Positions 61,622 to 61,882 of a stretch of 64,000 bases of DNA are shown here, in pieces (position 1 is the stretch's first letter; every line of letters starts with the position of its first letter). Under the pieces are notes generated by a model. The model was not told the origin of the DNA. It was given only the letters and a program-made list of their open reading frames with translations, and did no database searches. The stretch covers positions 768,001-832,000 of the forward strand of contig CAVZZO010000001.1 of the NCBI GenBank assembly GCA_963779755.1. The letters are read 5' to 3'. The DNA is from an uncultured Gemmatimonadales bacterium (GTDB lineage Bacteria > Gemmatimonadota > Gemmatimonadetes > Gemmatimonadales > GWC2-71-9). A program made the translations under genes and the position numbers.

Positions 61622-61670
61622 CGAAAAACAAAGTCGCGCCGCCGACACCGAACGGTCGACGACGCGGCTT
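61622..61670 (-). terminator. Intrinsic terminator
   Basis: Minus-strand stem GCCGCGUCGUCGAC/GUCGGCGGCGCGAC (uses G-U pairs) followed by UUUGUUUUU. Confidence 0.8.
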
Positions 61671-61742
61671 ATTGCCTGCGCGGCCCGGTACGATCGCTCG
61701 ATGGCAACCGATCGGAGGCGCAGATCGCGGTTCGGTCCTGGA

Positions 61743-61805
61743 TCAGCTACCGATCAGGCGATCGCTTGCCCATACCAGGTCGCGCCTGGGACTGTTACTA
61801 GACAA
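61743..61805 (-). CDS. 20-aa small ORF MSSNSPRRDLVWASDRLIGS (TTG start)
   Basis: Preceded directly by AAGGAGGTGATCCA; lies between a sigma70 promoter and a terminator. Confidence 0.5.
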   Translation of the reverse strand: MSSNSPRRDLVWASDRLIGS

Positions 61806-61853
61806 TGGATCACCTCCTTGGTTGGGGTTGGGGTTCGGGCGTGAACAACCGGG

Positions 61854-61882
61854 ATTCTAGAGCCAAGCCGGGGCGGACGCAA
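61854..61882 (-). promoter_or_regulatory. Sigma70-type promoter
   Basis: TTGCGT-N17-TAGAAT. Confidence 0.7.

Follow-up and report, generated by a model that had tools for sequence, protein, structure and literature searches.

Near one end of the 64,000-nucleotide (nt) stretch of an uncultured Gemmatimonadales genome analysed here (contig CAVZZO010000001.1; hereafter the window), the minus strand carries a small element between a gene for a 259-amino-acid protein and a gene of the LuxR type. The first-pass annotation had claimed that a hidden, self-contained transcript lies at this place and is missed by annotation; it would be about 220 nt long and combine an extreme Shine-Dalgarno (SD) sequence with a very short open reading frame (mini-ORF). 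As far as sequence comparison can tell, the core of that claim is correct. Taken as a whole, and with its inferred parts worded conditionally below, our reading is that the element is probably a free-standing gene for a small mRNA of the rre type, that is a Gemmatimonadota variant of the rreB and rreR genes of Alphaproteobacteria.

All coordinates given for the element are window positions on the minus strand, listed base for base from the minus-strand reading of 61300-62300, and the element spans 61882-61624. Its -35-like hexamer TTGCGT (61877..61882) was read from the sequence and has TTGC.. counterparts at equal distance in relatives; the -10-like hexamer TAGAAT (61854..61859) follows after a 17-nt spacer. 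The predicted transcript of about 223 nt (61624..61846) would start about 7 nt past the -10 box and end with a U tract. It opens with a C/A-rich and G-poor 5' leader, GUUCACGCCCGAACCCCAACCCCAACC (61820..61846), the GUYCRCGCCC start and C/A-rich tract of which are kept in the alignment of related elements and the last portion of which reads CCCCAACCCCAACC (61820..61833). Then come the extended SD sequence AAGGAGGTGATCCA (61806..61819), a perfect 14-nt complement to the 3' tail of the organism's own 16S rRNA, the start codon UUG (TTG, 61803..61805) and the mini-ORF MSSNSPRRDLVWASDRLIGS (61743..61805), which comprises 20 codons plus UGA (TGA at 61743-61745) and is conserved in length but not in its peptide. 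An intrinsic terminator (61624..61666) closes the unit. It consists of a 12-bp stem (61635-61666, nine G-C pairs) and a U tail (61624-61634), ACTTTGTTTTT, and was detected on the minus strand only by the terminator scan. Promoter, leader, 14-nt complement, TTG, ORF and terminator are all situated where the first-pass annotation had placed them, and the GATCG-rich character ascribed to the RNA is borne out by seven GATC copies in the 223-nt transcript, compared with about one per 150 nt genome-wide.

With 8 of 12 consensus matches, the window promoter was not listed by the promoter scan, the threshold of which was 9 of 12. Among 124 distinct related elements, 69 are preceded by a TTGNNN-N16-18-TANNNT motif, as opposed to none of 415 control windows of equal size, and in 49 of the 69 promoter-bearing elements the -10 box ends 32-36 nt ahead of GGAGG (36 nt in the window). 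Because the position of the motif is shared by relatives in this manner, the weak-looking promoter is held to be conserved in place. By prediction, then, the small transcript is free-standing, as the element possesses both a promoter and a terminator of its own.

The complement to the 16S rRNA is exact, since the single 16S gene detected in the genome ends with ...GGCTGGATCACCTCCTTTCT. When up to one mismatch was allowed, the 14-mer had one site in the window and a match in none of 100 shuffles. The entire genome (4.23 Mb, 68.5% G+C) contains two sites, the other one being the rRNA gene itself. The predicted duplex between the SD sequence and the 16S tail has an energy of -27.6 kcal/mol, compared with -11.9 kcal/mol for bare GGAGG. 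Within the ensemble of the window element's own folds the SD sequence has a mean unpaired probability of 0.54, a value caused by weak pairing with the C-rich leader. The UUG triplet, 7 nt past GGAGG, is a weak non-AUG start at optimal spacing. The shorter motif GGAGGTGATC has 45 sites in the genome, most of which resemble the coding words GAG-GTG-ATC and have no start codon after them. One such site (G000:C1:1856530), which is followed by a 14-codon ORF, was considered as a second copy and rejected; it was judged by eye, without a terminator or promoter scan, and looks like coding sequence without a matching leader, a TGTCY second codon or a U-tailed hairpin.

The search of related genomes that had been suggested by the first-pass annotation recovered the unit by blastn and its core motif by pattern scans. 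When a 301-nt stretch containing the element was compared with 60 relatives by blastn, clear matches appeared in further genera belonging to the same family and order, and in every relative locus bearing GGAGGTGAT this motif is followed by T/G-TG-TC-T/C and a short frame. We furthermore sampled 301 genomes evenly across the phylum (which the record titles give as Gemmatimonadota; the tallies include one unpublished genome, G099). The pattern GGAGGTGATCNNKTGTCY is present in 129 of these genomes, at one site each save for one genome with two, whereas its reversed control pattern matched once. It was not found in the 19 sampled genomes of the three most distant families. Counting one genome per species, the exact 19-mer GGAGGTGATCCATTGTCYA occurs at a minimum of 119 loci. 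Among the matches listed for it, at least 104 stem from Gemmatimonadota according to record title (Gemmatimonadales, Gemmatimonadaceae, Longimicrobiales and similar labels), at least ten from Alphaproteobacteria (Parvibaculales, Rhodobiaceae, Phyllobacteriaceae, the PS1 clade and Maritalea), at least two from Nitrospinota (one of them an isolate), at least one from a metagenome-assembled genome (MAG) of the Phycisphaerae and at least one from 'bacterium HR33'. One further listed match was dismissed as chance, lying inside a Flavobacteriales ORF. The two Nitrospinota loci (L038, L066) and the Phycisphaerae locus (L053) are complete look-alike units with a promoter-like region, GAAAGGAGGUGAUCCAUUGUCU, a frame of 9-14 codons and a terminator; L053 comes from a single MAG record that could be mis-binned. 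Judged by these comparisons of sequence, the element is a conserved, independent, separately terminated, single-copy gene for a small structured RNA.

The 223-nt RNA is predicted to fold with a minimum free energy of -91.9 kcal/mol (z = -2.74), a value as low as which was reached by none of 200 shuffles. A consensus structure was derived with RNAalifold from 21 distinct elements of the window's subfamily, picked by their likeness to the window element. Besides the terminator it contains a long-range helix P1, the 5' strand of which (61774..61785) lies inside codons 7-11 of the mini-ORF and pairs with 61678..61689, a near-invariant bulge UGGGCAA (61766..61772) between P1 and a second helix P2, seen in the alignment and in the consensus fold, and P2 itself. 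The 5' strand of P2, GCGAUCGC (61758..61765), is part of the near-invariant GGGCAAGCGAUCGCC, 13 of the 15 columns of which do not vary, and its 3' strand is located at 61690..61697. Pairing is possible in 95.0% of the cells, compared with 34-52% when the partners are slid by one to three columns; the structure was scored on the very alignment from which it was derived, which is a favourable bias, but the slid controls still fall far off. Compensatory changes are found in 16 of 40 pairs, among them five of the 12 pairs of P1 and nine of the 14 pairs of the aligned terminator helix. Cells with double changes number 90 as against 36.3 +/- 4.6 in shuffles, none of 500 of which scored as high.

The consensus leaves leader, SD sequence, start codon and the first six codons unpaired. 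In the bulge, GGGCA is invariant in the 21 sequences, the preceding U varies (codon 12 is UGG in 16 and CGG or AGG in five elements) and the last A is conserved to at least 90%. Transcript positions 76-82 (GGGCAAG, including six of the seven bulge bases) have a mean unpaired probability of 0.74. By eye, the alignment reveals a candidate pseudoknot, 5'-GCCC(N) : (N)GGGC, between transcript start and bulge, with the extra pair present in most rows, not in all; the GCCC tract is missing from the subfamily with 11-codon ORFs. P1 begins 20 nt past the first base of the start codon. Given the footprint of the 30S subunit, this position corresponds to the mRNA channel entrance of an initiating subunit. 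As GAUC is self-complementary, its copies, including the one in the SD sequence, could exchange partners. Elements of the 19-21-codon subfamily contain on average 2.4 GATC per 150 nt, with 0.5 being expected from composition.

Some related elements appear to hide the SD sequence by means of an internal mimic of the 16S tail, G(A/G)UCGCC. This self-masking beats shuffled sequences in all 28 elements with 11 codons, in 16 of 23 with 14 codons and in four of 60 with 19-21 codons. In the 11-codon subfamily (L023 and 27 further loci, about 120 nt from SD sequence to terminator), the SD sequence AGGUGAUCC together with UUG is predicted to pair with GGGUCGCCU plus CAA within the ORF. This modelled hairpin resembles the one predicted for rreB and is beyond the reach of a covariation test, because all of its columns are invariant.

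What is conserved in the mini-ORF is the type of its start and the place where it stops, two signs that the frame is translated. In the 301-genome sample all 130 sites have U or G as first base of the start triplet, and AUG does not occur. The complementary pattern with A or C in first position yielded no ATG and three CTG sites, which have TCC as second codon and are taken, uninspected, as chance matches to GAG-GTG-ATC coding sequence. ORF length is constant in each subfamily, with 11 codons in 28 of 28, 14 codons in 23 of 23 and 19-21 codons in 60 of 60 elements; these counts are descriptive, as ORF length had been one of the criteria for defining the subfamilies. The 21 closest relatives all have 20 codons. 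TGA, TAG and TAA replace one another at a single stop position, and the stop column is constant in ungapped alignments. The +1 frame, on the other hand, varies in length from three to over 80 codons. A conserved CUAG closes the +2 frame at codon 2 in most elements, which makes it unusable as a control.

The peptide itself presents a different picture. The pooled ratio of nonsynonymous to synonymous change (pN/pS) came to 1.45 over codons 4-12 and to 0.90 over codons 17-20. In the conserved 'WASDR' codons, even the silent sites hardly vary (pS 0.01, with GCA and CGC fixed), which points to conservation of GGGCAAGCGAUCGCC at the level of RNA and not of protein, and in codons 8-10, within P1, it is the third position that is most conserved. 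When the 11-, 14- and 20-codon forms, the alphaproteobacterial loci and the Nitrospinota loci are compared, their peptides have nothing in common except MS(S/T). Codons 2 and 3, UCU AGU (61797-61802), are the rarest and third-rarest serine codons of the genome, accounting for 1.6% and 4.2% of serine in 982 long ORFs with high G+C content at third positions. Genome-wide, UCU is used 0.83 and AGU 2.2 times per 1000 codons, yet both are near-invariant in the relatives. Judged by codon usage, such rare codons directly after the start do not fit high expression. Start type and stop position appear to be selected, and the peptide, with no sign of selection at the protein level in these comparisons, looks unimportant.

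The family that comes closest to this picture is that of the rre small mRNAs. According to Hahn et al. (RNA Biol 2017;14:1353, PMC5711450), rreB of Bradyrhizobium is a stand-alone mRNA of 165 nt with a 14-codon ORF, in which 17 nt, including the G of the GUG start, are complementary to the 16S tail, and a complement of 16-17 nt defines the rre genes. The same paper describes that rreB co-sediments with 30S subunits, that it is weakly translated, extended SD sequence and GTG start depressing translation, and that it becomes more stable once a stop codon takes the place of the start codon. Overproduction did not affect growth, ribosomes far outnumber the RNA and the authors argue against simple ribosome titration (PMC5711450). 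Analogues are reported for Caulobacterales, Rhizobiales, Rhodobacterales (rreR, 18 codons) and Rhodospirillales only, rreB itself being the gene of the Bradyrhizobiaceae; synthetic RreB and RreR peptides were unstructured, and the function of the rre RNAs is called 'elusive' (PMC5711450). In the literature searched we found no report of rreB or rreR outside the Alphaproteobacteria, nor of a Gemmatimonadetes small RNA with a Shine-Dalgarno sequence.

The window element shares with this family the stand-alone layout, an SD sequence extended on both sides, a non-AUG start at optimal spacing and the C/A-rich leader. It also shares a mini-ORF of one to two dozen codons that is fixed in length within a clade and unrelated in sequence between clades, and a neighbourhood that is not conserved across clades. 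As for the rre genes, the mini-ORF is conserved within its clade, here at the level of RNA and not of protein. It differs in having 20 codons instead of 14 (rreB) or 18 (rreR), in the overlap of its ORF with a covarying long-range helix and in its host phylum, Gemmatimonadota as opposed to Alphaproteobacteria.

A second link leads to Rfam family RF01867, 'CC2171'. This Caulobacter small RNA has been validated by Northern blotting in Methylorubrum and is said to have no known condition or function (bioRxiv 10.1101/2022.01.24.477521). The Rfam scan proposed by the first-pass annotation gave no match in the whole window at gathering thresholds. When E values up to 10 were admitted, CC2171 alone matched at the position of the element (15.4 bits, E 2.5 in 2.5 kb), and in each of the 15 related loci examined the same model gave a sub-threshold match that coincides exactly with the element (23.9-41.3 bits). 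Nitrospina loci score best for CC2171 in the locus set (41 bits). The printed CC2171 consensus begins with cAAcaAucGAAAGGAGGUGAUCCAGUGUCU, and by hand count its 5' part, GAAAGGAGGUGAUCCAGUGUCU, is identical to the window at 19 of 22 positions. Element and family resemble each other in the 5' motif, the structured body, the terminal hairpin and the UCU second codon of the Rfam consensus, whereas the RNA body of CC2171 cannot be aligned with that of the window element. From its consensus we infer that CC2171 would be the Caulobacter rre analogue. The literature naming CC2171 does not include the rre paper of Hahn et al.; no function is reported under this name there, and a Caulobacter small RNA library paper contains no information on it. 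All things considered, the element very probably is an rre-type small mRNA.

Several observations weigh against this assignment and have to be set beside it. The complement in the window has 14 nt and so falls short of the 16-17 nt by which rre genes are defined. Across the phylum only GGAGGUGAUC is fixed, together with one or two purines upstream, and the complement amounts to 10-14 nt overall; within the class no more than 10-12 nt of it are constant, CA following GAUC at about 64 of 130 sites (hand count). The start codon is UUG instead of GUG and lies outside the complement, as the opposite 16S base would need a G. The SD sequence is predicted to be mostly unpaired, whereas that of rreB is hairpinned save for its first 5 nt, and self-masking is not claimed for the window element because 18% of the shuffles match its pairing strength. 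Convergence could account for the likeness of the SD part, because the 16S rRNA dictates the SD sequence. The CC2171 match of 15.4 bits compares with a cut-off of 75 and in the whole genome has an E value of about 1, at rank 5 of 7; being below the cut-off and not significant genome-wide, it does not make the element a member of RF01867 by the model. Most of the comparison loci were gathered with patterns taken from the window element, so that counts of UCY second codons are biased. For the same reason, a profile test in which groups were left out (window on top, E 8e-10 and 9.5e-7) was discarded as evidence of homology: its training loci had been fished with the window's own 19-mer, which makes it circular. 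Finally, RreB and RreR are reported to keep their peptide sequences inside their respective clades (PMC5711450), so that a function of the peptide may still be considered.

This last point bears on the proposal that the locus is a genuine micropeptide gene, whose 20-amino-acid product (MSS...WASDR...) is functional, the features of the RNA doing no more than controlling its expression. Such a gene would be expected to display a perfect ribosome-binding site and a start and a stop that persist, the stop in spite of changes between TGA, TAA and TAG, as is the case here. Moreover, 19 of the 21 closest relatives share an unchanged 'ASDR' (Ala, Asp and Arg in 21, Ser in 19), preceded by W in 16 and R in five; clade-wise conservation of RreB and RreR would likewise agree with it. 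Against it stand the pN/pS values of the variable codons, the conserved codons that are invariant even at four-fold silent sites and fit a constraint on the RNA, third positions that are often the most conserved, namely in P1, and peptides that are unrelated between the subfamilies and phyla. The rare codons after the start and the unstructured synthetic RreB and RreR peptides (PMC5711450) point in the same direction. We regard a functional micropeptide as distinctly unlikely, and the more specific notion of a highly translated one, put forward in the first-pass annotation, was not upheld in view of the rare codons 2 and 3, pN/pS values around or above one, conserved codons without silent variation and the depressing effect of the SD sequence in rreB. 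If, instead, the RNA acted as a ribosome sponge, titrating free 30S subunits and lowering global translation, the strong predicted duplex with the 16S tail and the co-sedimentation of rreB with 30S subunits (PMC5711450) would be accounted for. A single-copy gene with an ordinary promoter is hardly what this idea calls for, rreB overproduction left growth unchanged in cells whose ribosomes far outnumber the RNA (PMC5711450), and the kept start, the kept stop position and the covarying hairpin would be left unexplained. Sponge action is therefore very unlikely; of the earlier suggestion of a 30S-sequestering RNA, the association with the 30S subunit comes closest to what is described for rreB, whereas simple titration is the part against which the authors of that work argue (PMC5711450). 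We give next to no credence to the idea of a decayed piece of an rRNA operon or of a coincidental match. The 14-mer is indeed the reverse complement of the 16S end, but the likeness to rDNA ends after these 14 nt, the flanks differ from the rRNA locus, no shuffle out of 100 matched, and many genera have kept the entire unit, covariation included. Alignment to a degenerate rRNA operon, the finding named in advance by the first-pass annotation as speaking against its proposal, did not materialise, there being no rDNA similarity beyond the 3'-terminal 14 nt.

The remaining alternative is a cis-acting leader or attenuator, in which translation of the mini-ORF would decide on the terminator and thereby control the LuxR-type gene downstream. 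This gene (59909-61552) encodes GerE helix-turn-helix and TPR domains, and its ATG at 61552 follows the U tract after 71 nt, in agreement with the distance of about 70 bp given earlier. Same strand, short gap and the lack of a recognisable separate promoter for the LuxR-type gene in the scan favour a connection, as does the frequent position of the unit just upstream of a CPBP protease gene elsewhere in the Gemmatimonadota (40 of 129 loci). The element also resembles attenuators of the trp leader-peptide type in that a short ORF, the 3' half of which is a helix strand, is followed by an intrinsic terminator and in that translation and not the peptide appears to be important. It differs from them by the absence of a conserved regulated gene, of a regulatory codon run in the ORF and, in the consensus fold, of an antiterminator alternative; by eye, no antiterminator pairing was found between the 3' strand of P1/P2 and the terminator. 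A tblastn search with the LuxR-type product detected no homologue beside the other 128 loci, about 40 of which offer only some 300 nt downstream. In 12 of the closest relatives, the next ORFs on the same strand encode a TPR protein, a Ser/Thr kinase, an acetamidase, an NHL protein or a product without Pfam match. The element's terminator is a strong one, covaries as such and is kept in every context seen. The pairing with the CPBP gene is not uniform either. Many other Gemmatimonadota loci present a divergent Kdo transferase gene (kdtA/waaA-like), the element and then a gene for a CPBP/Rce1-like intramembrane protease; transferase and protease are both present at 28 loci, the protease gene lies on the other side and the other strand at six, and the subfamily of the window has lost this neighbourhood. 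Loci with the recurrent CPBP pairing include L008, L010, L016, L022, L027, L029 and L037. Control of the LuxR-type gene, an option raised in the first-pass annotation, is thus not supported, given the element's own strong terminator and the absence of a LuxR homologue at the other 128 loci (about 40 of them covered for only some 300 nt) and in 12 of the closest relatives, and we consider it highly improbable.

On its other side the element borders on a near-perfect hairpin (61883-61965, minus strand), situated directly upstream of the promoter and just past the stop codon of the upstream gene and formed by three CTCTCGACC repeats and their complement. The 18-mer CTCTCGACCCTCTCGACC has 18 copies in the genome and a 16-mer has 42. 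Given these copy numbers, the hairpin looks like a dispersed palindromic element of the REP kind, which possibly serves as terminator or stabiliser of the upstream gene. A 42-bit Rfam match of the same hairpin to the plant microRNA precursor MIR1219 is spurious. The upstream gene (61960-62739, minus strand) encodes a protein of 259 amino acids with an N-terminus that by our own reading is lipoprotein-like (...LSGC); its sole family match, TTHB210-like, is weak and sub-threshold.

Returning to the rre-type reading, the features of the element can be combined into a working model of ribosome-gated remodelling, which we put forward tentatively and would not yet call probable. The extended SD sequence would anchor a 30S subunit very tightly via a 14-bp helix. 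Several features would slow down initiation and early elongation: the strength of the SD helix, a start codon other than AUG, the rare codons and a GC-rich P1 at the mRNA channel entrance. The occasional ribosome that does translate the 20 codons would melt P1 and P2 and terminate at a fixed point inside the hairpin, and the status of the ribosome would thereby set fold and lifetime of the RNA, a form of 'ribosome-regulated expression'. A fixed stop and a kept start combined with an unselected peptide suggest that it is the act and the extent of translation that selection keeps, and not the peptide. Our best guess for the cellular role is a ribosome-gated riboregulator or a reporter of free 30S subunits and initiation capacity. 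A bolder version, which in its full breadth we deem unlikely, would see in the rre-type RNAs ancient ribosome-gated riboregulators that reach beyond the Alphaproteobacteria into Gemmatimonadota and Nitrospinota at least. They would sense the status of free 30S subunits and initiation factors by virtue of an almost irreversible docking of the 30S subunit, a start made poor on purpose (UUG or GUG followed by rare codons) and the helix at the channel entrance, and each rare round of translation of fixed length would flip P1/P2 and so expose or hide the UGGGCAA bulge, the apical GGACCGAA loop and the GAUC repeats, which would act on other RNAs or proteins; the peptide would be a by-product.

The RNAs of the rre/CC2171 kind are among the few bacterial RNAs shown on the 30S subunit through the whole free 16S tail. 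A single-copy variant in many Gemmatimonadota, together with the look-alikes in Nitrospinota, would widen this family, and it would do so by way of a conserved gene that is missed by standard annotation pipelines and by the Rfam cut-off. It also provides comparative data beyond the alphaproteobacterial set, in which start type and stop position appear selected, the peptide does not and a covarying helix overlaps the ORF. The question whether such a locus is a small protein gene or an RNA would thereby become directly testable, and attention would turn to ribosome-coupled remodelling of RNA.

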